Assembly: GCA_944320235.1 (NCBI GenBank)
Contig: CALUGQ010000010.1
Location: 2,040 to 66,039, forward strand
DNA: 64,000 nucleotides
Direction: 5' to 3'
DNA from: an uncultured Prevotella sp.
GTDB taxonomy: Bacteria; Bacteroidota; Bacteroidia; Bacteroidales; Bacteroidaceae
Of the stretch, positions 1,651 through 38,702 are shown in pieces. The translations under genes were made by a program, and so were the position numbers. The notes beneath the pieces are model-generated. The model made no database searches. It saw only the letters and a list, made by a program, of their open reading frames with translations, and had not been told where the DNA came from. The stretch's first letter is position 1. Every line of letters starts with the position of its first letter.

Positions 1651-2724
1651 TCACTCCGGCTGCTCGGCGTCGAGTTTGTCTATGGCGCCGGTGGCGGGGT
1701 TGAGCGTAAGGTGGGTGGTGTAACGCTTGTTGAAGAGCTCGCCGCTGAGCAGCTCGGTGTAGCCATACTGCGCCGCCGAGGTGTCGAAACTGTCGAGCAC
1801 GGCAGAGCCTTTGTATATGGTGACGGAAATTTTGCCGGGTATGTTGACGTAGATGCCGTCCTCCTTGTCTTTCTTCTTCTTTCCCCCCTCGGCCTCGGGC
1901 GCGGCTGCCGGCAGGTTCTTCTCGTCGGTGACGCTGATGTAGTAAGGCTCGCCCGCGAGGTCGTCGGCATCGACAAGGCCCAGCTTCTGCGACAGGCGGA
2001 AGAGCACCTGCTTCCCCATGCCGGGCTGCGGGCATACGGTGAGCACGTACTCAGCGGTGTCTCTGACCGTAGTGCCGGTAAAGAGCTGCGTCAAAGCACG
2101 ATCCTGACGATCGAGGTTGGCCAGCATTATGCGCAGCTGCTCGCCGTCCTTGGGCATATAGTCGGCCTCGCCGCGGTTGAGGTAGTTCTTGCTGTCGCGT
2201 ATGTCGTATATGTCCTGCGCCGTGAGTTCGGCCATCTTTGCCGCGCTCCCGGCGGCGAGCACCTCCTCGCTGAGGTACTGGCGCGGGTTGGCAGCGGCAG
2301 GCCTGGGCGCGGCCCTGAACGGCTCGGGATGCTCCGCCTTGCGCGGCGTGGCGTTGACGGCGAGCAGGGTGCCGTCGCCGGCCAGCGCGATGTTGCACGC
2401 AGAAGTCTTGGCGTTGAATTTCACGGCGTAGCCCTTGGCCTTGTCGGCCTCGCCGAAGGTGGTCATCGACAGGCCTATGAGCCTGTGTGTGACTGACGGC
2501 TCGGCCTTGACATCGTTCAGCCGGAGGTAGCGCTGGGCGTAACGGCAGAAGTCGCCCGGGGTGTAACTGGTCTTCTCGACGCGCACCACGAAGCGCAACA
2601 CCGTCTTGGGGAGGAAGTAAACGGCCCCCTCGGGCGTGACGCCCGGCCTGTAAACGCTTGTCTCTGTCTGGGCTGCCGCTCCGCTGCAGAGCGCGAGCAA
2701 GCAGGCAATCAATGTCTTTCTCAT
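1651..2724 (-). CDS. DUF4831-like exported protein
   Basis: Signal peptide followed by GAVYFLPKT and MAELTAQDIYDIRDS motifs typical of this Bacteroidales family, which is usually next to nnr. Confidence 0.7.
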   Translation of the reverse strand: MRKTLIACLLALCSGAAAQTETSVYRPGVTPEGAVYFLPKTVLRFVVRVEKTSYTPGDFCRYAQRYLRLNDVKAEPSVTHRLIGLSMTTFGEADKAKGYAVKFNAKTSACNIALAGDGTLLAVNATPRKAEHPEPFRAAPRPAAANPRQYLSEEVLAAGSAAKMAELTAQDIYDIRDSKNYLNRGEADYMPKDGEQLRIMLANLDRQDRALTQLFTGTTVRDTAEYVLTVCPQPGMGKQVLFRLSQKLGLVDADDLAGEPYYISVTDEKNLPAAAPEAEGGKKKKDKEDGIYVNIPGKISVTIYKGSAVLDSFDTSAAQYGYTELLSGELFNKRYTTHLTLNPATGAIDKLDAEQPE

Positions 2725-2754
2725 AATGTATGTGGTGTTTCTTTATGCTTAACG

Positions 2755-4266
2755 CTATTCTTGTAGTTTCCTGAAAGCCTGCGGCAGGTACCTCACTATA
2801 TCGCCGGCCACAAGGCTCTCGCGCCCGAGGTCGGCCGCCGCAAGGTCGCCGGCAAGGCCATGGATGTACATCCCGGCCACGCAGGCGCCTGCCTGCCCGT
2901 AGCCGCGGGCCAGCAGCGCTGCTATGACGCCGGTGAGCACGTCGCCACTGCCGGCCGTGGCCATGCCCGCATTGCCCGTGGGGTTGAAGGCCACGTGGCC
3001 GTCGGGCAGGCATAGGGCTGAGTAATGCCCCTTTATGATGATGTAGGCGCCGAGGCGCGCGGCCATGTCGCTGGCTTTGACAAGGCGCTCGTAGCTGTCG
3101 GCACAGTGGCCTGCCATGCGGTCGAACTCCTTTGGATGGGGCGTCATCACTATGCCCCTGGGCAGCTGCTGCAGCCATGCACGGTGGTTGGCGAGGATGT
3201 TCAGCGCGTCGGCGTCGGCCACGATGGGGCACTGGGTGCGCCTGAGCTGGGCTATGAGCGCTATGGCCGTGGCCTCCTCCAAGCCGAGGCCGGGGCCTAT
3301 GGCCAGCGCGGTGAAGCGCTCGGTGTCTACGGCCTCCGAGAAGAAAGTCTCCTCCGGGTCGAGCTGCACCACCGCCTCTGGCACCGCCACCTGCACTGCA
3401 AGGTTGTTGCACCGGGGCGTGTGCACCGTTACCTTGCCCACACCCGAGCGCAGGCAGGCACGGGCGGCAAGCACCGAGGCGCCCGCCATGCCGCAGCTGC
3501 CGGCCACGAGCAGGGCGCTGCCCATGCTGCCCTTGTGGGCAAAATCATCGCGCCCCTTGACCAGGGAACGCACCTCGGCCTCCTCCACAACACGGTAGCG
3601 GGCGTCGGAAGAGGCAATGCCTTCTGCGCTTATGCCTATGTCGAGCGTCTTGAACCGGCCCACGTACTGCTGGTTCTCCGCAAAGAGGAACGACAGCTTT
3701 GGCTGCTGGAGCGTAAGGGTGAGGTCGGCGCGTATGGTGTTGGCGCGTACATTGTATGTGTTGTCCTCGCCCATCAGCCCCGAAGGCACGTCGATGCTGA
3801 CCACCGTGGCAGGCGAAGCGTTGATATATTTCACCAAAGAGGCAAAGCCCCCGGCCAGGGGCTTGTTCAGCCCCGAGCCGAAAAGCCCGTCGACGACCAG
3901 CGTGCCGGCTTCAAGCTGCGGCGGGTCGAACTCTTGCGTCACCTCCACGAACTGCACGCCGCCCAAGGCGGCAAGCCGCTCCTTGTTGGTTGCACAATCG
4001 GCGGAGAGACGGCCGGTGGTGTTGAACAGGAAAGCCGAAACGGAATAGCCCCTGCCACTCAGCAGCCGGGCCACGGCCAGCGCGTCGCCGCCATTGTTGC
4101 CCGGGCCGGCAAACACAACCACGGGCGTGGCAGCCCCCCATTCGCCGGCTATCGAGCGCGCTATGGCCTCAGCCGCGCGCTCCATCAAGTCAATGGAGGA
4201 TATCGGCTCGTGTTCTATCGTATACTTGTCCAACTCATGAATCTGAGCGCTTGTGAAAATCTTCAT
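2755..4266 (-). CDS. nnr: Bifunctional NAD(P)H-hydrate epimerase/dehydratase
   Basis: YjeF_N motif GPGNNGGD, plus AHKG, DADALN, TPHPKEF and ATAGSGDVL motifs. Confidence 0.95.
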   Translation of the reverse strand: MKIFTSAQIHELDKYTIEHEPISSIDLMERAAEAIARSIAGEWGAATPVVVFAGPGNNGGDALAVARLLSGRGYSVSAFLFNTTGRLSADCATNKERLAALGGVQFVEVTQEFDPPQLEAGTLVVDGLFGSGLNKPLAGGFASLVKYINASPATVVSIDVPSGLMGEDNTYNVRANTIRADLTLTLQQPKLSFLFAENQQYVGRFKTLDIGISAEGIASSDARYRVVEEAEVRSLVKGRDDFAHKGSMGSALLVAGSCGMAGASVLAARACLRSGVGKVTVHTPRCNNLAVQVAVPEAVVQLDPEETFFSEAVDTERFTALAIGPGLGLEEATAIALIAQLRRTQCPIVADADALNILANHRAWLQQLPRGIVMTPHPKEFDRMAGHCADSYERLVKASDMAARLGAYIIIKGHYSALCLPDGHVAFNPTGNAGMATAGSGDVLTGVIAALLARGYGQAGACVAGMYIHGLAGDLAAADLGRESLVAGDIVRYLPQAFRKLQE

Positions 4267-6759: not shown

Positions 6760-7537
6760 ACCGGTGCTCCGCTACCACGGCATCACCCCGGGTGTGGTCG
6801 CCTTCAGCACCACCCGCCACGGGGGCTACAGCCGTGGCAACTACGCCGAGTTCAACATCAACCAGCATTGCGGGGATGCCCCTGAGGACACGCAAAGGAA
6901 CCTTTGCCTGCTGTGCCGCAAGCTAAACATCAAGCCCGGGCGGCTGGTAATGCCCCACCAGACACACGGAACCGAGGTGAGGCAAATAGCTGAAGAGTTC
7001 TTCAGCCTGCCGCAACCGACACGCCGCCTCCTGCTCGAAGGCGTGGACGCCGTGATGACCGACGTGCAGGAAACGTGCATAGGCGTTTCAACAGCCGACT
7101 GCATACCCATCCTTCTTTATGACACTGACCACCGCGCCGCCTGCGCCGTGCACGCCGGGTGGCGCGGCACGGTGGGGCGCATTGCCCGCAAGGCCGTGGC
7201 AGCCATGCAGGCCGCCTACTCCACCCGGCCGCAATCACTCCGCGCCGTCATCGGGCCGGGCATATCGGCAGATGCTTTCGAGGTAGGCGACGAAGTATAC
7301 GCGAAGTTCGCACAGGCCGGCTTCGACATGGGGCGCATCAGCCGCCGCACCGGCAAATGGCACATCGACCTATGGGAATGCAACCGCCTCGAGCTTGTCG
7401 AGGCTGGCCTTCCCCCTGCCGCAATCAGCGTCACAGGCCCCTGCACATACTCACACGCCGACGAATATTTCTCCGCGCGACGCTTCGGTACGGCCTCCGG
7501 GAGGATATTCACCGGGATAATAATAAGAAACAGCTAA
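6752..7537 (+). CDS. pgeF: Peptidoglycan editing factor / YfiH laccase-domain protein
   Basis: [31 protein letters not shown] motifs; ATG 6752 overlaps the obgE end. Confidence 0.92.
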
Positions 7538-7542
7538 AGCCC

Positions 7543-8739
7543 ATGACTCTAAGAATCCACAGCACACTTACCGTAAAGCCTTTCCTTGCCGCCGCCATAG
7601 CCATAATAACGCTCACGTCGGCCACGAAAGACCAGTTTACGCCGCCCGAGCAGCAGCAGATAAGCATCGAAACGCCGGGGCTGTTCGACCGCTCCGACGC
7701 TTTCACTGTCGACTTCGCCGCCATTCGCCCGGCAGACTACAGTTTCCCGCTGCCCGTGGGCAAAGCGAGGCTGCTCAAGGACAACACCCTCGAAATCTCC
7801 ACGGCAAAGGGCGATGCCGTCAAGGCGATGTTCGGCGGCACGGTGCGACTATCGAGACACATCCCCGGCCACGGCAATGTCATCGTGGTGCGCCACGCCA
7901 ACGGGCTCGAAACCGTTTATGCACGCAACGCCCAGAACCTCGCCAAGGTCGGCGACGTGGTGAAAGCCGGGCAGACCATAGCCATCGTCGGGGGCAAGGA
8001 GGGGCGCACGTTCTGCTCGTTCGCCATCATGGTCAACGGCGGGCGCATCAACCCCGCGACCCTGCTGAACCCTGAGAGCCACAGGCTCCTGCGCCAGACC
8101 ATACTGTGCAAGAAAGTGCCTGGCCACGTAAGCCTCACCATAACCCACCCCGACAAGGAGCAACTGGCGCAGGCCGAGGCTGAGAAGCGCAGGCAGCAGG
8201 CAAAGGAATTCACCGCCAACCCCTTTGCCGACGGCAACAAGTTCAGCATAAATTTCGCCGAACTGGCCCCCGGCCAGTGGTGCTACCCCCTGCCCGGGGC
8301 GAAGGTGATAAGCCGCTACGGCCGCCGCAGCGGCAGGATGCACAGCGGGGTTGACCTCAAGACCAAGCCCAACGACGAGATACTGGCCGCCTTCGACGGC
8401 GTGGTAACAATGTCGCAACGCTACTATGCCTACGGCAACTACATCAAGATACGCCACGCCAACGGACTGGAGACCTGCTACAGCCACAACTCCAAGAACC
8501 TCGTGAAGAAAGGCGACGTGGTAAAGGCTGGGCAGGTGATAGCCCTCACGGGGCGCACCGGGCGCGCCTCCACCGAGCACCTGCACTTTGAATGCCGGGT
8601 GAACGGGCAGACATTCGACCCCGCCAAGATATTCGACCACGCAAACCAGGCAGTGAAGATGGACCGGCTCACGTTCACCAAGCGCGGGCGCAGCGTATCC
8701 ATCAAGGCCGAAAAGAACTACATGGCCAAGGGGAAATGA
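7543..8739 (+). CDS. M23 family peptidase with two tandem M23 domains (first degenerate)
   Basis: Domain 2 has HSGVD and HLHFE; domain 1 keeps RHANGLETVY but lacks the Zn ligands; ATG 7543. Confidence 0.85.
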   Translation: MTLRIHSTLTVKPFLAAAIAIITLTSATKDQFTPPEQQQISIETPGLFDRSDAFTVDFAAIRPADYSFPLPVGKARLLKDNTLEISTAKGDAVKAMFGGTVRLSRHIPGHGNVIVVRHANGLETVYARNAQNLAKVGDVVKAGQTIAIVGGKEGRTFCSFAIMVNGGRINPATLLNPESHRLLRQTILCKKVPGHVSLTITHPDKEQLAQAEAEKRRQQAKEFTANPFADGNKFSINFAELAPGQWCYPLPGAKVISRYGRRSGRMHSGVDLKTKPNDEILAAFDGVVTMSQRYYAYGNYIKIRHANGLETCYSHNSKNLVKKGDVVKAGQVIALTGRTGRASTEHLHFECRVNGQTFDPAKIFDHANQAVKMDRLTFTKRGRSVSIKAEKNYMAKGK

Positions 8740-28723: not shown

Positions 28724-30007
28724 ATGGAAAAGAAACTAAGACCGGCGTCGCTCTGCGTCCGCGCAGGGTGGACACCCAAGAACGGCGAGCCCGTGGAGCC
28801 GCCAATCGTGCAAAGCACGACATTCAAGTATGACGACAGCGACGAGATGGCCCTGCTCTTCGACCTGAAGAAGGAGGGCTACTTCTACACCCGACTGCAA
28901 AACCCCACCAACGACGCCGTGGCGCAGAAGATTGCCGCGCTCGAAGGCGGCGTGGGCGCGGTGCTCACGTCGTCGGGCCAGGCAGCTAACTTCTACGCGG
29001 TGTTCAACATCTGCGAGGCGGGCGACCACATAGTGGCCTCGAACGAGATTTACGGGGGCACCTACAACCTCTTCGGCGTGACGCTGAAGAAGCTCGGCAT
29101 CGACTGCACCTTCGTAAACCCCGAGGCCGGCGACGAGGAGATTGAAAAGGCGTTCCGCCCGAACACCAAGGTGATGTTCGGCGAGACTATCTCCAACCCC
29201 GGCTGCAAGGTGCTCGACATAGAGCGCTTCGCCCGCCTGGCCCACAGCCACGGCGTGCCGCTCATCGTTGACAACACCTTCGCGACGCCCATCAACTGCC
29301 GCCCCTTTGAGTGGGGAGCCGACATCGTCACCCACTCCACAACCAAGTACATGGACGGCCACGCCATGCAGGTGGGCGGGTGCGTGGTGGACAGCGGCAA
29401 CTTCCCCTGGACGGAGCACGCCTCGCGCTACCCCGGGCTGTGCTCGCCCGACGAGTCGTACCACGGGCTGGTGTATGCCGAAGCCTTCGGGAAGATGGGC
29501 TACACCACCAAGCTCGTGGCGCAGCTCATGCGCGACCTCGGCTCCGTGCCCTCGCCCATGAACTCGTTCCTGCTCAACATCGGCCTGCAGACGCTCCACC
29601 TGCGCGTGCGCCAGCACTGCCAGAACGCGCAGAAGGTGGCCGAGTTCCTTAGCGCCGACCCGCGCGTGGCGTGGGTTAACTACCCCGGCCTGCCCGGCAA
29701 CCCCTACCACGCCCTTGCCGAGAAGTACCTGCCACAGGGCAGCTGCGGCGTGATAGCCTTCGGCCTCAAGGGCGACCGCGACACGGCAGTGAAGTTCATG
29801 GACTCGCTGCAGATGGCGAGCATCGTAACCCACGTGGCCGACGCGCGCACCTGTGTGCTCCATCCCGCCAGCCACACCCACCGCCAGCTCTCCGACGAGC
29901 AGCTGCGCGAGGCCGGCATCGCGCCCGACCTAATCCGCCTCTCCGTGGGCATTGAGGACGTGGAGGACATCCTCGACGACATCCGCCAGGCCCTCGACAG
30001 GATCTGA
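28724..30007 (+). CDS. metY: O-acetylhomoserine aminocarboxypropyltransferase/sulfhydrylase
   Basis: YTRLQNPT, VDNTF, HSTTKY PLP lysine, HPASHTHRQL, IRLSVGIE; ATG 28724. Confidence 0.92.
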   Translation: MEKKLRPASLCVRAGWTPKNGEPVEPPIVQSTTFKYDDSDEMALLFDLKKEGYFYTRLQNPTNDAVAQKIAALEGGVGAVLTSSGQAANFYAVFNICEAGDHIVASNEIYGGTYNLFGVTLKKLGIDCTFVNPEAGDEEIEKAFRPNTKVMFGETISNPGCKVLDIERFARLAHSHGVPLIVDNTFATPINCRPFEWGADIVTHSTTKYMDGHAMQVGGCVVDSGNFPWTEHASRYPGLCSPDESYHGLVYAEAFGKMGYTTKLVAQLMRDLGSVPSPMNSFLLNIGLQTLHLRVRQHCQNAQKVAEFLSADPRVAWVNYPGLPGNPYHALAEKYLPQGSCGVIAFGLKGDRDTAVKFMDSLQMASIVTHVADARTCVLHPASHTHRQLSDEQLREAGIAPDLIRLSVGIEDVEDILDDIRQALDRI

Positions 30008-30080
30008 CTTTTGTAAAAGCATTTCGCAATCCACGCCCCTTCCCGCAACTGCCTGTGCCACAGCGCATTGCGGGAAGGGG

Positions 30081-30146
30081 CGTTTTGCGTTGCAAAACAG
30101 GCCGCATCGCGCTGCAAAACGCGCCGTTTGGCCCCGCCACAACGGC
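30081..30146. repeat. 22-bp-periodic intergenic array
   Basis: cgttttgcgttgcaaaacaggc / cgcatcgcgctgcaaaacgcgc / cgtttggccccgccacaacggc. Confidence 0.75.
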
Positions 30147-30463
30147 CTCCCCGGACAGCAAGGCGCAAGCCCGGCCCTGCGGCCGCGGCTTTTGTAGCAA
30201 TTGTTTACCCCGAACCGGCCATCATAGGCCAAAGTGATTTCGTCCTGCCAGCGTGCAGGCCGGCAGCCGCCTTTGCTGAAGGCGCAGCAGGACAGGCCGA
30301 GACAAGGCGTCAGGCAAGATGGCGCAGGCAGGACGAGAGCGCTTGGAAAGCCGCACACAGCCAAAGGACAAGGCAGCAGGCGGCCTGATGACCGACTTGG
30401 ATTTTCACCAAAATAGTGGCGCGAGAGCCTCCCCGTTAAGGATTTTTTTAGTACATTTGCACC

Positions 30464-32137
30464 ATGAAGCACGCGCCAACCATAATAATCACCATGCTCG
30501 CCCTGCTGCTACTGGCCGCCTGCGGACGCCACAGGTACCCGCCAGGGTTGGCCAAAGTGGACAGCATCGCCGCCGCCCATCCCGACAGCGCGGCCTCGAT
30601 GCTCAGCCAGATGGCCGCCGACACGGCCACATGGGCCGAAGACGCGCGCATGTACTACAGCCTATTGCGCCTCGAAACCGCCGACCGACTGTACGAAACG
30701 CCACGCTCAGACTCGGCAGTGCTCCCACTGCTGCGCTACTACGAGCAGGGCGGCGACCGCCGCCTGCTGCCCAGGGCTTACTACACAGCAGGGAAGATTT
30801 ACACGGAAATGAAAGACGCGCAGCAGGCTGCAAAATATTTCAGGCTTGTCCTTGAGACCGCAAAAGGAGATGACAAATCACTCATCAAAAGCAGGGCTTA
30901 CTCACGCATTGGATATATGTTTGCAGAAAGTGAGCTCTACGATGACGCATTGGATATGTTCATGCGTTCCTATAACATAACATCACAATCAAGGGACACA
31001 ACTAACATGATTTATGACCTACGCGACATTGCACGCACCTATGCCGACAAAAACATCATTGACAGTGCTCTCAATACATACAACAAAGCTTTGAAATTAG
31101 CAATAAAGCAAGGCAACAAAAAGATGGAGGCATCTGCCAACACACAAATAGCTGCACTTTATGAAAAAGAGGGGCAATACGCACTTGCCTGGAGACATCT
31201 GCGTCCTGCCATATCATACAACAACCCTCATGAAAGGAATGCGATGTTGGCAATCGCTGCCCGTCTGTTTTCCAAAGAAGACAAACTGGACTCGGCCGTG
31301 ATTTGCTACAACGCACTTGCAGAAAAAGGCAATTCGTTTGGCAAACACGCAGCACATACATGGTTGGCAGAACATTATTCAAATACAGGTGACACAAGAA
31401 AAGCCACACATCACCTTAAGCTCAGCAAACAATATGCAGATTCAGTAAATTTAAAACGTGCAGCAAGCGCAGTGAACTTGGAGGTTGCGTTATACGACAA
31501 CAACTCCCTCAAAAATGAAAACCAAAAACAACACAACATCATCATAGCCATGACTATATGCTTCATTTGCATTGTCTCTATTTATTTTGCCAGGCCCATC
31601 CTAAAAGAAAGAGTTACCATGAACAAAGGAACACATAAAAACACAGCAACAGAGACAGAAAGCAAAGGAGCAAGCCATACAACAAATGGAAATCACAAGA
31701 TTAACGTTGTTACTTCAAATGACGGCAAACAACATTTGCCTATAACGCCCCCAGCAGCAAACATTGACCTTGACACACTAAAAAAAGAGCAAAAGAACAA
31801 AATAAAAGAATCACGCATATACAACGAAATACGCAAGAAACTGGACAAGACTGGGCAACCACAGCCTTTGTCGGATGAAGAATGGGAAGAACTTGCATCA
31901 ACCGTAGATACCATATACACAGATTTCAGAAAACGGCTTTATGAACTCTGTGACATGAGCGTGGCCGACTATCATGTGTGCCTGCTACTAAAAATAAATC
32001 TCAAACTTCGCGAAATAGCATCACTTACTTGCCTCTCTTACCAAGGGCTCGCATCTGTACGCATAAAACTATACATGAGAGCATTTAAAGAAAAAGGCGA
32101 AGCAAAAGCTTGGGACAAAGTTATTCTTGAGCTATAA
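30464..32137 (+). CDS. TPR-repeat lipoprotein/membrane sensor with C-terminal HTH-like (LuxR-type) domain
   Basis: Lipobox LLLLAAC, TPR helices, TM IIIAMTICFICIVSIYFA, C-terminal EEWEEL...VCLLLKINLKLREIA...SVRIKL. Confidence 0.75.
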   Translation: MKHAPTIIITMLALLLLAACGRHRYPPGLAKVDSIAAAHPDSAASMLSQMAADTATWAEDARMYYSLLRLETADRLYETPRSDSAVLPLLRYYEQGGDRRLLPRAYYTAGKIYTEMKDAQQAAKYFRLVLETAKGDDKSLIKSRAYSRIGYMFAESELYDDALDMFMRSYNITSQSRDTTNMIYDLRDIARTYADKNIIDSALNTYNKALKLAIKQGNKKMEASANTQIAALYEKEGQYALAWRHLRPAISYNNPHERNAMLAIAARLFSKEDKLDSAVICYNALAEKGNSFGKHAAHTWLAEHYSNTGDTRKATHHLKLSKQYADSVNLKRAASAVNLEVALYDNNSLKNENQKQHNIIIAMTICFICIVSIYFARPILKERVTMNKGTHKNTATETESKGASHTTNGNHKINVVTSNDGKQHLPITPPAANIDLDTLKKEQKNKIKESRIYNEIRKKLDKTGQPQPLSDEEWEELASTVDTIYTDFRKRLYELCDMSVADYHVCLLLKINLKLREIASLTCLSYQGLASVRIKLYMRAFKEKGEAKAWDKVILEL

Positions 32138-32207
32138 GCATCATCACGAGAAATCAAAAAAGGCCAATATCTTACAATATAACAGAACTATACGTAAAAA
32201 AACGACA

Positions 32208-32287
32208 ATAAGAAGCAATTAAGAACCATTTGAGAAGTAATTGAGAAGTAAAAAGCTTTGTCGGCCAATCACTATTTTATAACTTTG
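32208..32287 (+). promoter_or_regulatory. Bacteroidetes sigma-A promoter preceded by four 11-bp direct repeats
   Basis: TTTG 32257-32260, 19-nt spacer, TAACTTTG 32280-32287; repeats ataagaagcaa/ttaagaaccat/ttgagaagtaa/ttgagaagtaa. Confidence 0.75.
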
Positions 32288-32314
32288 CACTCAACAAAAC
32301 CAAAATTAACGCTT

Positions 32315-32665
32315 ATGAAAAAAGTATTATTTACTTATCTCGCAATGGCCATCTGTGTTTCAAGCTTAGCCAGCACCAATGTAGTGCAATGGCAAAACGA
32401 TGACGAGACAAGGGGTGAACCCAAACCCAACATACACACTCCTACAATAACTTTCGATGAAAGTTCCGTCTACCTGCGCACCGACTCTGGAGCAGTAGCC
32501 GCCAACATCACCATAACAGGCACGGGCGGAACAATAATGTACAGCGGCGAGACGGTGCTAACGCCAGGCGTACAGGCCATCAGCGTACCCGACACCGACG
32601 GAGAAGAGAAGTACATGATAGAGATAACCACCGACAGGCGGAGGCTCTACGGATACTTCATGTAA
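32315..32665 (+). CDS. Small secreted DUF3244-like Ig-fold protein
   Basis: Signal peptide, beta-rich body ending YMIEITTDRRRLYGYF; directly after a TPR regulator. Confidence 0.7.
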   Translation: MKKVLFTYLAMAICVSSLASTNVVQWQNDDETRGEPKPNIHTPTITFDESSVYLRTDSGAVAANITITGTGGTIMYSGETVLTPGVQAISVPDTDGEEKYMIEITTDRRRLYGYFM

Positions 32666-32780
32666 TCAACGTGAAACTCTGAAAAAAAACAAACGGGTAC
32701 CCATGCCCGCCCGCGGGAAAATGGGAGCAACGCCCCTAACGCTTCAGCACGGGGCAAAACAACAATAAAATAAAACAAAC

Positions 32781-33164
32781 ATGAAAAAGACATTGGCCAT
32801 GGTCGTGCTCACGGCCGCATTCTGCGCAACGGCAAACGCACAAGGAACGTCAATACCAAAGGAAGTCAAAGAGACTTTTTATGGAACGAAAGCCAGCAAA
32901 AGCCCGAACAACCCATGCAAGGGCGCGACGACACGCGTTTGCGGAATAAGAGTCATCACCTATTCTGACATGGGCGACAACACCACGCGCGTAACGAGGC
33001 TGACAACCGACTGCGACGGCGACGTGCTCGAAAACTGGACAAACATTCTTCCATTCCCCTTTGATATCATAGCGGAGTACCCCGGAGACGTTAACTTCAC
33101 CGACATCAAACATCGTGGAGACAACGATGACAACGGCAACACAGACGGCACGCCACTTCCATAA
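32781..33164 (+). CDS. Small secreted Cys-containing protein, copy A
   Basis: Signal peptide, NNPCKGATTRVC motif; 102/127 identical to 36262-36645 by manual alignment. Confidence 0.85.
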   Translation: MKKTLAMVVLTAAFCATANAQGTSIPKEVKETFYGTKASKSPNNPCKGATTRVCGIRVITYSDMGDNTTRVTRLTTDCDGDVLENWTNILPFPFDIIAEYPGDVNFTDIKHRGDNDDNGNTDGTPLP

Positions 33165-33177
33165 ACGCAATTCGCCA

Positions 33178-34962
33178 ATGAAGATATTATCCATAATATT
33201 CTTATCTTTACTAATGGGCATAGTTTCCCGCGCAGAGGACTTCCCTCTCGTGCGGGAAACGATGTCGCTTTCGCTGCAAGTACGCCAAAAGCCAGGCACG
33301 GAAGGTCTTTTAAAGGAATACCTTGGCATGGTGCCTGCCGACCAAGACACCATATATGCCATTCTCTACGAGCCGGGCTTCTGCCCGAGATGCGAGGTGT
33401 TCATAAACGGAGTTGGCGGATTGCTCAAGCAGCAATCGCCCACAAGCAGGCTCGTGCTCATCACCACTTACAGCGACTCCGCGAGGGCTGCCGCCTACAA
33501 CAAGGCCAAGGAATATGCCGCCGATTACTACGTCTACGACACAGACAAAGCCTTTCTCAACATATTCAGCTTCAACTCCAGTGGACTTTCGGGCTTATAC
33601 TTGTTCAAGATTTGCAAGTCGAAGGGCGAAGTGCTGACGGGAGGGGTAAACTACTTCGCCACGCCTGAGTTCGTAAAGGAACTGGCACAGTGGACAGAAC
33701 GGATGCCGCCCCACGACTATGCGATAGACGAAAAAGGTTACGACATGGGGAAATGGGAACTGCAGCGCCCTCAATGCCCACCCATCGGCACTGCCTACAC
33801 CGACTACCCAATAGCCCCGGACGGACAGATGCTGTCGCACGTGTTCGACATACCGAAGTTCGACGGCAGCCACTTTTACTACACCGACAAGCTAAGCGAG
33901 GGCGTGATGCTGTTTAAAATCGACGGCGATTCGCTACGCTTCAAGGCGCACATAGAAGCCGACAGCACCGAGCGTTACAGCTTTATCAAGGTAAGCAAGG
34001 AGGCCCGCAAGCATATTACAGACGACGATTTGTCGTTCATACCGCTTGCAACTAGCATCATAGACAGCACGCGCATCGGCGTGTCTTACTCGCTGCCCAA
34101 CGTCACCGAGGACACCATTGCCAAGCAGCTTGGCTTTTACAACGAGCCTGTGTTGCTCCTGCGCGACCTCAACACGCTTAAGCCGCTGCCGCTCTACGAG
34201 CCGCTTTTCAACATTGAAAACGACACACTGTTCTTCTACCAGCACTTCAACTTCTGCGTGTTCAAGGGCAACGTCATCTATAGCTGCCAGAAGATGACAT
34301 TCCCCATGGAGTACGAACGATGGGAATACGAGCACAACCCCGCGCTCAACCCGTTCACGCCGGAGTTCTACCGTAGCGGCAACCCGTGGCTGGCGGCGTT
34401 CAACCTCAGTACGGGCAAGCTCTCCGCGCGCTTCGCCGAGCTTGAGCCTTGCGCCGAGGCCGGCCGCACGGGCTATTACTACCAGAACCCGCTGATGTAC
34501 AGCGACGGCAAGGAACTGCTCTATGCCGACGGGTTCTCTGGCACGGTACACATCACACGCGACATCGACGGCGGCCCGGTGGAGAGCTTCTCGGCCTTTG
34601 CCGTGGACACCGCGGCGTTCCCGCAGCCCGACACGGCCATGTTCTACCGCCGCGAATACTTCAAGGCTTACGACCGCTTTTACTACCGATGCATAATGCA
34701 CGCGCGCATGGATGCCGACAAGGTGTGCTGCCTCGTGATGTACTCCCGACGCGATGTGGCCAAGCCAGGACCCGAAACGAACGACTATACCCTCGTGACC
34801 ATCGACCGACGCACGGGCCTTGCCACTGAGCGGATGCTGCCGCGATACCCGGGAATGCGCCCCCTGGGCTACGGACTGCGCACTGACAACGGGCAGATAC
34901 GCCCCTTCGGCTTCTACCGCCGCGCCGACGGCAGCTACGTGGTGCGCCTGTGGGGCGAATGA
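33178..34962 (+). CDS. Exported protein with N-terminal CPRC thioredoxin-like motif, copy A
   Basis: Signal peptide, LYEPGFCPRCE, beta-rich C-terminal region; paralog at 36659-38449. Confidence 0.8.
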   Translation: MKILSIIFLSLLMGIVSRAEDFPLVRETMSLSLQVRQKPGTEGLLKEYLGMVPADQDTIYAILYEPGFCPRCEVFINGVGGLLKQQSPTSRLVLITTYSDSARAAAYNKAKEYAADYYVYDTDKAFLNIFSFNSSGLSGLYLFKICKSKGEVLTGGVNYFATPEFVKELAQWTERMPPHDYAIDEKGYDMGKWELQRPQCPPIGTAYTDYPIAPDGQMLSHVFDIPKFDGSHFYYTDKLSEGVMLFKIDGDSLRFKAHIEADSTERYSFIKVSKEARKHITDDDLSFIPLATSIIDSTRIGVSYSLPNVTEDTIAKQLGFYNEPVLLLRDLNTLKPLPLYEPLFNIENDTLFFYQHFNFCVFKGNVIYSCQKMTFPMEYERWEYEHNPALNPFTPEFYRSGNPWLAAFNLSTGKLSARFAELEPCAEAGRTGYYYQNPLMYSDGKELLYADGFSGTVHITRDIDGGPVESFSAFAVDTAAFPQPDTAMFYRREYFKAYDRFYYRCIMHARMDADKVCCLVMYSRRDVAKPGPETNDYTLVTIDRRTGLATERMLPRYPGMRPLGYGLRTDNGQIRPFGFYRRADGSYVVRLWGE

Positions 34963-35252
34963 CTGCGGCGAGTCGGTGCTAACACCCGGCGTACAGGGAC
35001 GGCGACTTTAACCCAAAGCTATATTTACAGTACAGCCGTATTGAGTCCATAAACGTCAAAAGACTACTTAGCCTTTTCATGGAAGCTTACGAAATGTACC
35101 CTAACGACATTGATGACATTGCGGAAGTAGTAAACCATTACACCGCAATCATGGAGACAAACAACGAACTCACTGAAAGAGAAAAAATGATTATATATGG
35201 AGCACTCACCATTTCACTCTACAGCCCGCAACTATGGAATAACTTTGAATAG
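34959..35252 (+). pseudogene. Probable gene remnant (3' part of an unknown gene)
   Basis: ATG 34959 overlaps the upstream stop, in-frame TAA 34980, then 89 open codons ending EREKMIIYGALTISLYSPQLWNNFE. Confidence 0.45.
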
Positions 35253-35409
35253 CTTGTTCTGGGATGCGCTCACGCTCGTGTTCATATGGATAGTCTTTGG
35301 CATAGGATACGTTTTGTGGTTATTCACCGCCATCACCATCGTAGAGAACATTTTCCGCATAGCTTGGATGATAAGAAAAAGGAAAAGGCAACTTGAAGAA
35401 CATGAATAA
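35245..35409 (+). CDS. Small membrane protein
   Basis: TTG start overlapping the previous stop; hydrophobic helices followed by RKRKR. Confidence 0.45.
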   Translation: MNSLFWDALTLVFIWIVFGIGYVLWLFTAITIVENIFRIAWMIRKRKRQLEEHE

Positions 35410-36112
35410 CAATGCGATGACATTAAGTTACGAAAGACAAGTCGCCCACATCGCCACGGCATGCGCGTGCGGGGTTATCATGGCATTGACGCCCATGCAG
35501 GGGGCATGGGTGGCAGTCGGTGGGGCGCTGATAATATCTGTCGTTTGCACGGTGTTTGCCATGAGCCTGCGCTCCCGAGGCGCAGCCGAAGCATGGAGCC
35601 CCACCCTTTCTTCCGATGCGGCCATGGCCGGCTGCGCCATGCTCGTGCCGTGCCTTACGCAATCGCACGGGTGGCTGGCACTGCCGCTCATGCTCATCCC
35701 CGCAGCAGATGCGCTGTTGGCCTTGCGCAGCAAGCCAACAGCCGAAGAGCCGCCTGCCAGGCAGAGCCTTGCCCTCCTGGCCTTGGAGGCCGCACTCATT
35801 GCCGTGGCAGTGGCCTTGGCGCTGGCCTACGGCGTTGACGGATGGAACGCGCCCCGCTTGGCTTGCGCAGCCGTCTCCATGCTGATGCTTGCAGTGGCGA
35901 TATGCACCATGGGCGGATGGGGCATGGCGAAAGTGCCGCACAAGGAGAGGCGACTGTCGCTCTGCATCATGCCAATCCCCATTGCCATCTGTGTCTACGG
36001 CTTGGCTTACGGCGATGGCGCGGCGGCCAAAGCCATTTGCCTGTCCACGGCGGCTGCATGCGCCGCCGTGCTGGAGATTGACAAGCACAGGACAAAGCCA
36101 CGACGAACATGA
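35402..36112 (+). CDS. Multi-pass membrane protein
   Basis: About 8 hydrophobic helices; start overlaps the previous stop. Confidence 0.65.
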   Translation: MNNNAMTLSYERQVAHIATACACGVIMALTPMQGAWVAVGGALIISVVCTVFAMSLRSRGAAEAWSPTLSSDAAMAGCAMLVPCLTQSHGWLALPLMLIPAADALLALRSKPTAEEPPARQSLALLALEAALIAVAVALALAYGVDGWNAPRLACAAVSMLMLAVAICTMGGWGMAKVPHKERRLSLCIMPIPIAICVYGLAYGDGAAAKAICLSTAAACAAVLEIDKHRTKPRRT

Positions 36113-36261
36113 AACAATGAATGCACCACTGACCAACCCATAGGGGCAACCGAAAGCAAACTGGCTCTCACCTTCAGCAGGCCACTCATGCCCTGCACGC
36201 AAAAGCATGGAAGCAACGCCCCTAACGCTTCAGCACGGGGCAAAACATAACACGTTATAAC

Positions 36262-36645
36262 ATGAAAAAGACATTGTTTATGGCTGCGCTCGCAGCTACT
36301 TTCTGCGCCACGGCAAGCGCACAAGGAACGTCAATACCCAAGGAAGTCAAAGAGACTTTTTATGGAACGAAAGCCAGCAAAAAACCGAACAACCCATGCA
36401 AGGGCGCGACGACACGCGTTTGCGGAATAAGAATCATCACCCATTCTGACATGGGTGACAACACCACGCGCATAACGAGGCTGACAACCGACTGCGACGG
36501 CGACGTGCTCGAAAACTGGACAAACATAATTCCATTCCCCATTGATTCCATCGCGAAGTCCCCCGGAGCCGGCAAGTCCTTCGACATCAGGCATCGTGGG
36601 AACAACGATGACAATGACAACACAGGTGGCACGCCACGTCCATAA
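36262..36645 (+). CDS. Small secreted Cys-containing protein, copy B
   Basis: Paralog of 32781-33164. Confidence 0.85.
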   Translation: MKKTLFMAALAATFCATASAQGTSIPKEVKETFYGTKASKKPNNPCKGATTRVCGIRIITHSDMGDNTTRITRLTTDCDGDVLENWTNIIPFPIDSIAKSPGAGKSFDIRHRGNNDDNDNTGGTPRP

Positions 36646-36658
36646 ACGCAATTCGCCA

Positions 36659-38449
36659 ATGAAGAGATTATCCATAATATTCTTCTCTTTACTAATGGGC
36701 ATAGTTTCCCGCGCAGAGGACTTCCCCCTCGTGCGGGAAACCATCGCCATGGAGCTGCAGATACGGCAGAAACCCGGCACCGAGCCATTGCTGAAAGACT
36801 ACCTCAGCAGCATAAGCGCGCCCAACGACACGGTGTACGCCATACTCTACGAGCCTACTTTCTGCCCACGCTGCGAAATAGACATAAAGCCATACAGCAA
36901 GATGCTGAGTGAGCTTGCGCCGCAAAGCCCGTTCGTGCTGATTACCGCTTACCCCGACTCGGCGAGGGCCGCGGCCTACAACAAGGAGAAAGGATACGCC
37001 GCCGACGGCTACATATACGACACGGACGAGGCGTTCATGCGCATCTTCAGCTTCAACACAAACGGCCTCTCCGGCCTGTACATCCTGAAGATGTGCAAAT
37101 CCACGGGCGAACTCCTCGTAGGGGCAAACAGCTTCTACACAAGCATGGAATACACAAAAGAGCTTACTGGCTGGACGGAACGGATGGAACAGCACAACTT
37201 CGCGCAGGCCTCCGGCGCTGCTGGCGGCGAACCATGGCAGCTGCCACGCCCGGCGTGCGAGCCGCTCACCGGCCCATTCACCGACCATGGGCTGAAGCTC
37301 GACGGGCAGATGCTGTCTGACGTGTATGACGTACCCAAGTTTGACTGGCCGTACTTCTTCTACAACGACAAGCTGAACAACTGCGTGATGCTCTTCAAGG
37401 AGGACGGCGGCTCACTGCGCTTCTCCGCACGCATAGAGGCCGACAGCACCGAACGCGACCATTTCATAGAGCTGAGCGATGACTGGAAACGGCTCCTCGA
37501 CAAGTCGAGCCTGTGCTACATACCGCTGGCGGCGACGATGACGGACAGCCAACGGATAGGGGTGTCGTACTCACTGCCCCACGTCATGGAAGACACCATA
37601 GCCAAGAACGGCGGCCTGGCTTTCTTCAACGCACCCGCAATCGTCATTCGCGACGCGGGGACGCTGGCCAAGTCGCCGATGTACTGCCCCGACTTCATGC
37701 TCTTCAAGGACACCACCTACTTCTATGCCCACTTCAACTTCTGCGTGTTCAAGGGCGAGGTGATCTACAGTTGCCAGAAAATGACATGGCCGATGATGTA
37801 TGAGCGGTGGGAATACGAGCACAACCCGGTGATGAACCCTTTCTCCGAGAAGTTCTACAGCAGCGGCAACCCGTGGCTGGCGGCGTTCAGCCTCAGGACG
37901 GGCAAGCTGGTGGAGCGCTTCGCCGAGCTTGAGCCGTGCGCCGAGGCCAGCCGCACCGGCTATTGGTTCGTCAACCCGGTGATGTACAGCAACGGCGACG
38001 AACTTCTGTATTCCGACGGGTTCTCAGGCGCTATCCACATCACTCGCGACATCCACAAGGGCGCAGCCGAGAGCTACTCTGCATTTGCCGTGGACACGGC
38101 GGCGTTCCCGCAGCCCGACACGGCCATGTTCTACCGCCAAGAATACACCAAGGCTTACGACCGCTTTTATTACCGCTGCATAACGGCGGCGAGCATGGAC
38201 GCCGGCAAGGTGACCTGCATCGTGAGGTATGCCCGCAACGACATGGCCAACCCTACAGCCGAGGCGAACGACCACACCGTGGTGACCATCGACCGCCGCA
38301 CGGGCCTCGCCACAGAAAGGCTGATACCACGCTACCAGGGAATGCGCCCCATGGGCTACGGACTGCTCACTGCCAACGGGAGGGTAAGCCCATTCGGCTT
38401 CTACCGACGCGCCGACGGCAGCTATGTGGTGCGCGTGTGGGATGCATGA
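36659..38449 (+). CDS. Exported CPRC-motif protein, copy B
   Basis: Paralog of 33178-34962 (LYEPTFCPRCE; shared WEYEHNP, FPQPDTAMFYR); ATG 36659. Confidence 0.8.
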   Translation: MKRLSIIFFSLLMGIVSRAEDFPLVRETIAMELQIRQKPGTEPLLKDYLSSISAPNDTVYAILYEPTFCPRCEIDIKPYSKMLSELAPQSPFVLITAYPDSARAAAYNKEKGYAADGYIYDTDEAFMRIFSFNTNGLSGLYILKMCKSTGELLVGANSFYTSMEYTKELTGWTERMEQHNFAQASGAAGGEPWQLPRPACEPLTGPFTDHGLKLDGQMLSDVYDVPKFDWPYFFYNDKLNNCVMLFKEDGGSLRFSARIEADSTERDHFIELSDDWKRLLDKSSLCYIPLAATMTDSQRIGVSYSLPHVMEDTIAKNGGLAFFNAPAIVIRDAGTLAKSPMYCPDFMLFKDTTYFYAHFNFCVFKGEVIYSCQKMTWPMMYERWEYEHNPVMNPFSEKFYSSGNPWLAAFSLRTGKLVERFAELEPCAEASRTGYWFVNPVMYSNGDELLYSDGFSGAIHITRDIHKGAAESYSAFAVDTAAFPQPDTAMFYRQEYTKAYDRFYYRCITAASMDAGKVTCIVRYARNDMANPTAEANDHTVVTIDRRTGLATERLIPRYQGMRPMGYGLLTANGRVSPFGFYRRADGSYVVRVWDA

Positions 38450-38579
38450 CAACGGCTGAAGGCCTCCGGCACACGCCAATCAGCGGGTCTGCCTGCACGC
38501 AAAGGGGAGACGCCGCAGCTGACACGCCGGCCGATGACACGCCACACTCCAGGCAAAACAAGCTGAAACAAACAAAAAG

Positions 38580-38615
38580 AAAGTGAAAACGCGAACTTTT
38601 CCGCGTTTTCACTTT
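38580..38615 (+). terminator. Intrinsic terminator-like hairpin ending island 1
   Basis: Perfect 14-bp stem aaagtgaaaacgcg / cgcgttttcacttt. Confidence 0.65.
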
Positions 38616-38702
38616 GCCGTTTAAGTATTATTTCCTATATTTGCGTTGTCTTTATGACACAATGACACGACTATTACTAAACCTTTAAAACATCGCATTA
38701 CT

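Follow-up and report, generated by a model that had tools for sequence, protein, structure and literature searches.

A stretch of 64,000 nucleotides (nt) from an uncultured Prevotella sp. (contig CALUGQ010000010.1; below, the window) carries two copies of a unit made of two genes, which we call S and L and which encode a small and a large exported protein. S and L are a conserved, cognate, and uncharacterized gene pair of the Bacteroidota. The S-L module is accessory and mobile, and in the window it is the cargo of a "switch" composed of a DUF3244 gene and a SusR-like regulator with tetratricopeptide repeats (TPR), a transmembrane helix, and a helix-turn-helix (HTH). The four genes of the two units, with lengths in amino acids (aa), are the following.

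32781-33164, forward strand: S1, 127 aa, Sec-exported, taken from the list of open reading frames (ORFs).
33178-34962, forward strand: L1, 594 aa counted from its ATG, Sec-exported, taken from the same list.
36262-36645, forward strand: S2, a paralogue of S1 (80% identity), 127 aa.
36659-38449, forward strand: L2, a paralogue of L1 (65% identity, synonymous divergence [dS] of ~0.86), 596 aa.

An earlier reading of this DNA, made without database searches (the sequence-only reading), had noticed that a unit of a secreted small protein and a large protein with the motif FCPRCE occurs twice, and the ORFs and their identities confirm it. S1 and S2 are identical at 102 of 127 positions, the count given before and obtained again on realignment, and have NNPCKGATTRVC in common; L1 and L2 are identical at 385 of 594 positions (65%) and share FCPRCE. 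At the DNA level, positions 32699 to 34969 align with 36184 to 38456 at 75.8% identity over 2303 columns. Direct reading of the sequences gives all four proteins an N-terminal signal peptide, mostly without a lipobox. The changes in S had been described as clustered at aa 90 to 127, and this holds for the tail (60% identity at aa 91 to 127) but overlooks the signal peptide, which also differs (80% at aa 1 to 30). The large proteins are, as had been said, more diverged in the middle, at 43 to 58% identity over aa 181 to 360 versus 70 to 78% at the ends.

Could the repeat have been made by an assembler, the outcome that the sequence-only reading had named as fatal to its proposal? We rule this out because the repeat is only 76% identical and because independent metagenome assemblies from several studies (loci L094 and L096 and 16 similar places) show two units in the same arrangement, with proteins that are 100% identical. 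The L2 protein (P0004, with a start called 12 codons later than that of full-length L2) is identical on 66 contigs.

The sequence-only reading had also taken the small and the large protein for a cognate pair, and the wider survey agrees. Of 55 loci fetched from Prevotellaceae, Bacteroidaceae, Muribaculaceae, and Flavobacterium, ~39 have S immediately before L, and all but one of the S genes seen adjoin an L gene. Among 19 nonredundant pairs, nine overlap (five of them by ATGA) and six others are no more than 20 nt apart, that is, 15 of 19 overlap or nearly abut. In one locus (L100) the pair sits among housekeeping genes with no other conserved neighbor, and in another (L026) it is likewise a bare pair. 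Homologues of the regulator adjoin S-L in 16 loci, and 8 of the 10 other loci tested have a DUF3244-like gene before S, four above the family cutoff and four below, with scores of 25.4 to 34.2 bits for the homologues; no transporter or polysaccharide utilization locus (PUL) consistently adjoins S-L in the fetched loci. A set of 5.8 billion proteins holds 60 homologues of L, of which the few with a source name are labeled "hypothetical protein" and come from Prevotella, Phocaeicola, and Flavobacterium; a library of 1.84 billion proteins clustered at 50% holds 336 representatives, and the 150 listed are either ~590 aa long or fragments. L is distributed unevenly, with 7 of 301 genomes in the order and 11 of 201 species in the genus having it, and some copies have decayed.

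Two observations from the same survey stand apart. One locus (L042, 4529-4897) has an orphan second S, with the loop N-K-C-S-G-E-C-V-K-V-C, 1.6 kb downstream of an S-L pair and with no L after it. Three loci in bins of metagenome-assembled genomes (MAGs) named Lachnospiraceae or Acetatifactor (L031, L032, and L048) encode S and L proteins that match those of a Prevotella MAG contig (L030) exactly, with the S frame split in L048; these are most likely misbinned Bacteroidales contigs.

S is the smaller and faster evolving of the two families by far, with 31 clusters. An AlphaFold2 (AF2) model built from 25 sequences gives a four-stranded antiparallel sheet at aa 27 to 100 (predicted local distance difference test [pLDDT] of 80 to 92 in the core), followed by a disordered acidic tail. 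Only P45, C46, G48, and C54 are invariant in the family alignment; they belong to a loop-hairpin after the first strand, Y-x-G-x-K-A-x5-N-P-C-x-G-x5-C, and in the model C46 and C54 face each other across the hairpin. S has no match in Pfam, NCBIfam, PADLOC, or PHROGs and none by sequence to solved structures, Foldseek of the model against the Protein Data Bank (PDB) and BFVD returned nothing at an E value of ≤0.001, and there is no match to NVEALA (PF14055) at an E value of ≤1. Homology of S to the N-terminal domain of DsbD (nDsbD) or to the C-terminal domain (CTD) of SOQ1-type proteins was rejected: hhalign against 25 Bacteroidales DsbD_N domains gave a P value of 0.82, and the Foldseek match to 1l6p has an E value of 1.2 and a probability of 0.08. 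Partial matches of S to single propeller blades raised the idea that S supplies a blade missing from L; we set this idea aside, since the strand groups of the L model appear to make up six blades and an N-terminal closing strand already.

L is predicted to consist of two parts (AF2 model from a 31-sequence alignment, pLDDT 87, predicted template modeling score 0.86). The first, aa ~30 to 175, is an alpha/beta domain in which C70-P-R-C73-E comes after the first core strand, at the N terminus of the first long helix, and in which the order of strands and helices is of the beta-alpha-beta type expected of a thioredoxin-like fold. The second, aa ~205 to 594, is a six-bladed beta-propeller, the blades being counted from the DSSP strand list and not from coordinates. 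Alignment of the N-terminal domain with hhalign to 23 Thioredoxin_8 domains from related genomes gave a P value of 1.2e-4 over 94 columns, with the CxxC in register with WCxxC, against P values of 0.04 to 0.82 for three control pairs of unrelated profiles. Single members of the L family show weak matches to Thioredoxin_8, Redoxin, and AhpC-TSA over the same region, all short of the Pfam and NCBIfam cutoffs (at best, Thioredoxin_8 with an E value of 0.0066 in 1 of 31 members, and Redoxin at 15.9 bits versus a cutoff of 26.6). C70, R72, and E74 are invariant in the family, C73 is present in at least 90% of sequences, and the motif is C[PYFR]RC. The redox half of the earlier suggestion that L is a "redox-maturation or receptor partner" thus has a basis in a redox-type, TlpA-like domain. 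As to the "secreted effector" of that reading, both proteins show Sec signals only.

Foldseek returned 278 matches to L at an E value of ≤0.001, and the 50 listed are almost all beta-propellers, at a template modeling (TM) score of ~0.35 and 9 to 11% identity. The longest alignment among the matches listed, 631 columns across both domains, is to 7djk, which we take to be the lumenal region of SOQ1; the propeller matches also include exported propellers of Bacteroides (4raa and 9hqk), and BF0058 and the siderophore-binding XusB are named among them. The invariant residues of the propeller cluster in loops and insertions (SYSLP, H357, C371-x-K-x-T, NPFxxFY, TGYY, and PDxxxFY). L has no match in Pfam, NCBIfam, PADLOC, or PHROGs, a search of PDB sequences with the L profile was empty, and a scan of 31 members found no Pfam match to NHL, TolB_like, or DUF5128. 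The sequence-only reading had known of no function for either protein, and no characterized family is matched by S or by L. By these observations, L is a TlpA-like thioredoxin fold joined to a six-bladed propeller, the domain plan of NHLRC2 and SOQ1.

The comparison with NHLRC2 and SOQ1 deserves to be drawn out. These proteins have a thioredoxin-like domain, a six-bladed NHL propeller, and a small beta C-terminal domain, with a CxxC in the cleft between thioredoxin domain and propeller, and the thioredoxin domain exchanges electrons with a cysteine pair of the CTD (PMC6107167; bioRxiv 10.1101/2021.03.16.435614; 10.1101/2024.11.01.621559). The target of SOQ1 is a small beta-protein, the plastid lipocalin LCNP (same sources). 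The 2018 structure paper left the molecular function of NHLRC2 undetermined (PMC6107167), and a function for SOQ1 was proposed only in a 2024 preprint (10.1101/2024.11.01.621559). L resembles them in having a thioredoxin domain of the TlpA/DsbE type followed by a six-bladed propeller, in total size, and in its extracytoplasmic compartment. However, L lacks NHL repeats (31 members), its motif is CPRC (C[PYFR]RC in the family) and not CC(I/V)NC, and its cis-proline is not conserved; moreover, S is encoded apart from L, evolves fast, and has no similarity to nDsbD or the CTD that could be detected. For bacterial NHLRC2 homologues, no conserved operon partner was found (PMC6107167), whereas for L adjacency to S is the rule. 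We conclude that L is not a member of the NHLRC2/SOQ1 family, though it shares the architecture.

How did two units come to stand in tandem? The sequence-only reading had described a diverged tandem duplication whose two proteins are co-diversifying; the duplication is not a simple tandem one, and co-diversification is not supported. Between unit 1 and unit 2, dS reaches 0.86 for L but 0.20 for S, with zero in codons 31 to 60 of S, and with values about fourfold apart the two units are therefore mosaics of different ages. The calculation by region that had been proposed as a check gave a ratio of nonsynonymous to synonymous rates (dN/dS) below 1 in every pairwise window, peaking at 0.68 in the tail of S, and positive selection is rejected accordingly. 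A three-way alignment with the sister strain L095 shows the mosaic in one segment.

32845-33236, no strand: recombination (gene-conversion) tract.

Over these ~390 bp, unit 1 is mostly 93 to 100% like unit 2 (70 to 87% at 33055 to 33144) and 30 to 73% like L095; outside it, up to ~32844 and from ~33237 on, unit 1 is 100% identical to unit 1 of L095. The tract covers the coding region of mature S, the spacer between the genes, and ~20 codons at the start of L1, which encode its signal peptide, and by recombination it replaced the mature S of slot 1 with sequence like that of the S2 unit. L095 itself retains an ancestral S in slot 1 that is 27 to 41% identical to S1, keeps the invariant loop, and stands beside an L1 that is 99 to 100% identical. 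By these alignments, L1 and L2 are old paralogues and S1 is a recent recombinant copy, and S changes independently of L. Co-diversification fails as a description because dN/dS stays below 1, S1 bears the tract, and S has been swapped beside an unchanged L1.

Within the species, the structure of the locus varies. One haplotype (L097) lacks unit 1, another (L098) has only a chimeric S and L2, a third (L099) has a slot-1 S pseudogene with an in-frame stop, and chimeric alleles of both S (P0062) and L (P0003) are present in the population. A sister species (L016) has a single unit, in the order GH43-metY-regulator-DUF3244-S-L-TM239-gdh, and its L is 85% identical to L1 and its S only ~40% identical to S1. 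Across all loci the identities of S and L correlate (rho of 0.57), S diverges faster, and the only outliers involve S1 of the type in the window. The population data show recombination between tandem paralogues reshuffling such cassettes.

The pair also moves between genomes. In Segatella copri, Phocaeicola massiliensis, and Prevotellamassilia timonensis, S-L occurs without the regulator-DUF3244 head and beside an integrase, DUF3408, NikA/MobC, and a relaxase, and no other cargo is apparent. In the first two species the element is a mobilizable transposon, and their sequences are 99.4% identical in nucleotides over 2.9 kb spanning S-L, which indicates a recent transfer between Prevotellaceae and Bacteroidaceae. 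Elsewhere, in a Logan contig (L059, 11003-16374), regulator, DUF3244, S, and L come before a gene that weakly resembles radical-SAM, two unknown genes, RteC, and a tyrosine integrase, and this block is part of a larger mobile element. In Bacteroides sp. GM023 (L049, 2250-8428), L is in two pieces: positions 2250 to 3027 hold S and the first ~125 codons of L, positions 7070 to 8428 hold the remainder of L, and the ~4 kb in between is probably an insertion element.

In the window itself, the two units are embedded among the following features.

30464-32137, forward strand: SusR-like one-component membrane regulator, with a lipoprotein-type signal, periplasmic TPR, one transmembrane helix, and a cytoplasmic HTH-containing C terminus.
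32208-32287, forward strand: candidate operator-like direct repeats, then a Bacteroidetes-type promoter from a pattern search.
32315-32665, forward strand: DUF3244 (Pfam PF11589) small exported beta-sandwich protein, first gene of the probable operon.
32727-32760, forward strand: copy 1 of a 34-nt leader element (GCAACGCCCCTAACGCTTCAGCACGGGGCAAAAC), 20 nt upstream of S1.
35079-35252, forward strand: 57-aa ORF in a low-GC spacer, a gene call in independent assemblies, present only in haplotypes carrying the TM239 block.
35197-35409, forward strand: 70-aa ORF with one hydrophobic helix, in another frame and overlapping the 57-aa ORF, also a gene call in independent assemblies.
35402-36112, forward strand: TM239, an Ala/Cys-rich multipass membrane protein, a lineage-specific orphan by family scans and genome survey.
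36213-36246, forward strand: copy 2 of the 34-nt leader element, upstream of S2.
38580-38615, no strand: terminator-like 16-bp hairpin between L2 and the promoter of gdh (glutamate dehydrogenase), the probable operon end.

The regulator matches TPR_12, TPR_8, and TPR_1 in Pfam, and its transmembrane helix and HTH are read directly from the sequence. It falls under the cutoffs of the curated models for such regulators (DUF6377, 24.9 versus 36.7 bits; BT3442_fam, 76.6 versus 940; SusR_regulator, 23.4 versus 480), with sub-cutoff E values of 1.6e-21 for the NCBIfam model BT3442_fam and 3e-5 for SusR_regulator; its order of signal, TPR, transmembrane helix, and HTH does agree with theirs by direct reading. 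The DUF3244 gene reaches 25.0 bits at a gathering cutoff of 25, a borderline match. The promoter, TTTG-N19-TAACTTTG at 32257-32287, follows a pattern that has 7 matches in the window versus 0.46 expected, and no other match lies between the regulator and the promoter of gdh at 38613-38643. Because of this single promoter and the strong hairpin after L2, we consider that DUF3244, S1, L1, the small ORFs and TM239, S2, and L2 probably form one operon. Over 30001 to 34000 the GC content is 0.49 versus 0.60 to 0.64 in the flanking housekeeping genes (metY and gdh), which fits a horizontal origin of the block from the regulator through DUF3244 to S and L.

The 34-nt element occurs in two identical copies (none expected by chance), ~20 nt before both S starts, the flanking intergenic DNA being only 30 to 67% identical. 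It is kept in the sister strains, partly in L016, and not in distant loci, and it has a 5-bp GC stem; a structured RNA was considered and rejected, the fold z-scores of -1.4 and -0.75 being not significant. The element may be a processing or translation-control site within the operon. The low-GC spacer of 430 bp after L1 (34963-35392) is absent from L016, where 37 bp separate L and TM239. TM239 has no match in Pfam, NCBIfam, or PADLOC; an orthologue, 64.5% identical, lies directly after L in L016, and among 301 genomes of the order only 1 has TM239. With no family match and that distribution, TM239 was rejected as a CcdA/DsbD-like electron conduit or a core partner of the pair.

What might S and L do together? 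We tentatively favor, at somewhat less than an even chance, a mechanism in which the CPRC of L exchanges a disulfide with the cysteine loop of S in the periplasm. In this model, S and L would be translated together and both exported to the periplasm, where L would dock the conserved loop of S at the interface between its thioredoxin domain and its propeller. The CPRC pair would then swap a disulfide with C46/C54 of S and thereby set the redox state of S, reducing power for L could come from the DsbD of the host, and the variable remainder of S would meet a strain-specific target or ligand. The pair would in effect be a split form of the SOQ1 scheme, in which a propeller-borne thioredoxin-like domain passes electrons with a small beta-domain that has a cysteine pair. 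The pairing of S with L, the thioredoxin fold with its conserved CxxC, the invariant cysteine pair of S, the export signals, and the full-length DsbD encoded by the host organism all argue for such an exchange, and an S that is 27 to 41% identical and keeps its loop beside a near-identical L1 fits recognition via the conserved loop only.

Several observations weigh against disulfide exchange between L and S. Of five genomes whose L has no adjacent S, four show no detectable S anywhere. The slot-1 S pseudogene of L099 stands beside an intact L1, and therefore either L has a role independent of S or S is dispensable. One member of the L family has CPRG instead of CPRC. A cis-proline loop is near-universal in redox-active thioredoxin folds, and in L it is not conserved, the column aligned to the TlpA-like "iP" being G/L. 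S has no detectable relation to nDsbD (hhalign P value of 0.82) and no significant fold match. Finally, it is not obvious why a pair with a housekeeping-type redox role would be carried on mobile elements or be present in only ~5% of congeneric species.

There is a bolder version of the redox model, which we regard as speculative and unlikely as it stands. We speculate that S-L could be a split, mobile counterpart of SOQ1/NHLRC2, in which L charges a separate and rapidly diversifying S that delivers or withdraws electrons, or else a sulfur or metal ligand, at strain-specific periplasmic or extracellular targets. If so, swaps of S by recombination would retarget one conserved enzyme, and gut Bacteroidales would have an undescribed route by which to diversify the redox activity of the envelope, possibly for competition.

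Could the pair instead be a module of interbacterial antagonism, one partner being a toxin that is secreted or borne on outer membrane vesicles and the other a periplasmic immunity or maturation protein? For example, L might protect or activate S, a diversifying effector, with an orphan L as acquired immunity. The genomic record speaks for such a module: the spread is accessory and patchy with decaying copies, the pair is apparently the sole cargo of a mobilizable transposon that is 99.4% identical in nucleotides between Prevotellaceae and Bacteroidaceae, one species is polymorphic for presence or absence and for cassette swaps, and L persists without S while nearly every S lies beside an L, which is the usual asymmetry of immunity and toxin. 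In addition, the same regulator and DUF3244 head precedes an internally duplicated MACPF cluster in Bacteroides thetaiotaomicron (PMC2954219). Against it, family scans and Foldseek give neither S nor L a signature of a toxin, pore-forming protein, nuclease, lipase, or peptidoglycan hydrolase; PADLOC and PHROG offer no toxin or defense model; and S and L have Sec signals only, with no dedicated exporter and no signal of a type VI or type IX secretion system. An S that is 27 to 41% identical beside an unchanged L1 would be intolerable for a specific toxin-immunity interface unless binding were through the loop alone, and dN/dS is below 1. We consider antagonism improbable.

Another reading is that L might be a stand-alone periplasmic enzyme or binder of a ligand (a small molecule, glycan, or peptide held on the aromatic face of the propeller) and S a dispensable inhibitor, chaperone, or specificity subunit that plugs or tunes the site with its disulfide-stapled loop. 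Several genomes have L but no S, the length of the family is fixed at ~590 aa (336 representatives, 150 of them listed), the invariant propeller residues cluster in loops and insertions, and the exported propellers BF0058 and XusB, the latter siderophore binding, are among the Foldseek matches. The loop of S has nine residues, is closed by a disulfide, and contains Lys/Arg, and a nine-residue disulfide-closed loop with Lys/Arg is the canonical format of inhibitor loops (Bowman-Birk inhibitors and SFTI-1). On the other hand, the propeller matches are generic (TM score of ~0.35, 9 to 11% identity), no catalytic motif was recognized in L, no transporter or PUL is consistently adjacent, and the near-invariant CxxC is left unexplained, and we hold a stand-alone L to be a doubtful reading.

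Least probable, and in our view very unlikely, is variation of the envelope, in which S would be a variable exposed protein (a decoy for phage or host antibody, or an adhesin) that L folds or anchors and the array and its recombination would serve antigenic or receptor variation: S does outpace L and is swapped by recombination with its signal peptide and loop kept, and chimeric alleles of S (P0062) and L (P0003) and several haplotypes exist, but most members of S and L have no lipobox, type IX C-terminal domain, or surface anchor, neither an invertible promoter nor a shufflon was found, the copies number only two and both are apparently cotranscribed, and neither PADLOC nor PHROG has a match.

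S-L has partial parallels in three systems other than NHLRC2/SOQ1. The first is the TlpA/ResA/CcmG group of oxidoreductases (Thioredoxin_8, Redoxin, and AhpC-TSA), which act on dedicated partners and use DsbD. L shares their fold, the CxxC at the start of helix 1, and export, and the profile match is in register; it differs in scoring below every Pfam cutoff, in lacking the cis-proline, in an invariant Arg inside the CxxC and a Glu after it, and in the fused propeller. The second is the combination of NVEALA small proteins with BF3164-type/DUF5128 six-bladed propeller lipoproteins, which form arrays in Bacteroides. The likeness is that of a small exported protein with a propeller, in repeated, swappable units with TPR/HTH regulators, but neither S nor L is related to them in sequence, and L is not a lipoprotein and has an extra thioredoxin domain. 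The third concerns the setting and not the proteins. In B. thetaiotaomicron, BT_3442 (TPR) and BT_3441 (DUF3244) precede the internally duplicated MACPF cluster BT_3440..3433 (PMC2954219). There, as here, a TPR-transmembrane-HTH regulator and a DUF3244 head stand before exported and internally duplicated cargo; the cargo here is S-L and not a MACPF or pore-forming protein, and S-L also occurs without the head.

We found no literature on the S-L pair and no Pfam or NCBIfam model for it. The protein pair is new, and its architecture and regulatory setting have known parallels. The pair is found in prominent taxa of the human gut (Segatella copri, Phocaeicola massiliensis, and MAGs of Prevotella and Muribaculaceae), and this prominence, together with the recent move between families, suggests an accessory function that can be selected. 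Action of the CPRC of L on C46/C54 of S is a concrete biochemical hypothesis, and the pair would give the NHLRC2/SOQ1 architecture a bacterial analogue whose parts can be separated genetically. For the Bacteroidales regulator-DUF3244 switch, S-L adds one type of cargo.

A further group of proteins came to light when a bridge was sought between L and annotated thioredoxins. Thioredoxin_8 proteins of 590 to 670 aa from the same genome (contig C13; L104, 702-2687) and from a congeneric genome (G305; L105, 1282-13030) were rejected as such a bridge: they have an unannotated N-terminal part of ~470 to 540 aa and a C-terminal Thioredoxin_8/Redoxin domain, which is a different and likewise uncharacterized architecture. 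Two of these proteins with a C-terminal thioredoxin domain were confirmed on the G305 contig, beside an OMP_b-brl_3 barrel and a carboxylesterase, and a further Thioredoxin_8 match is present there.

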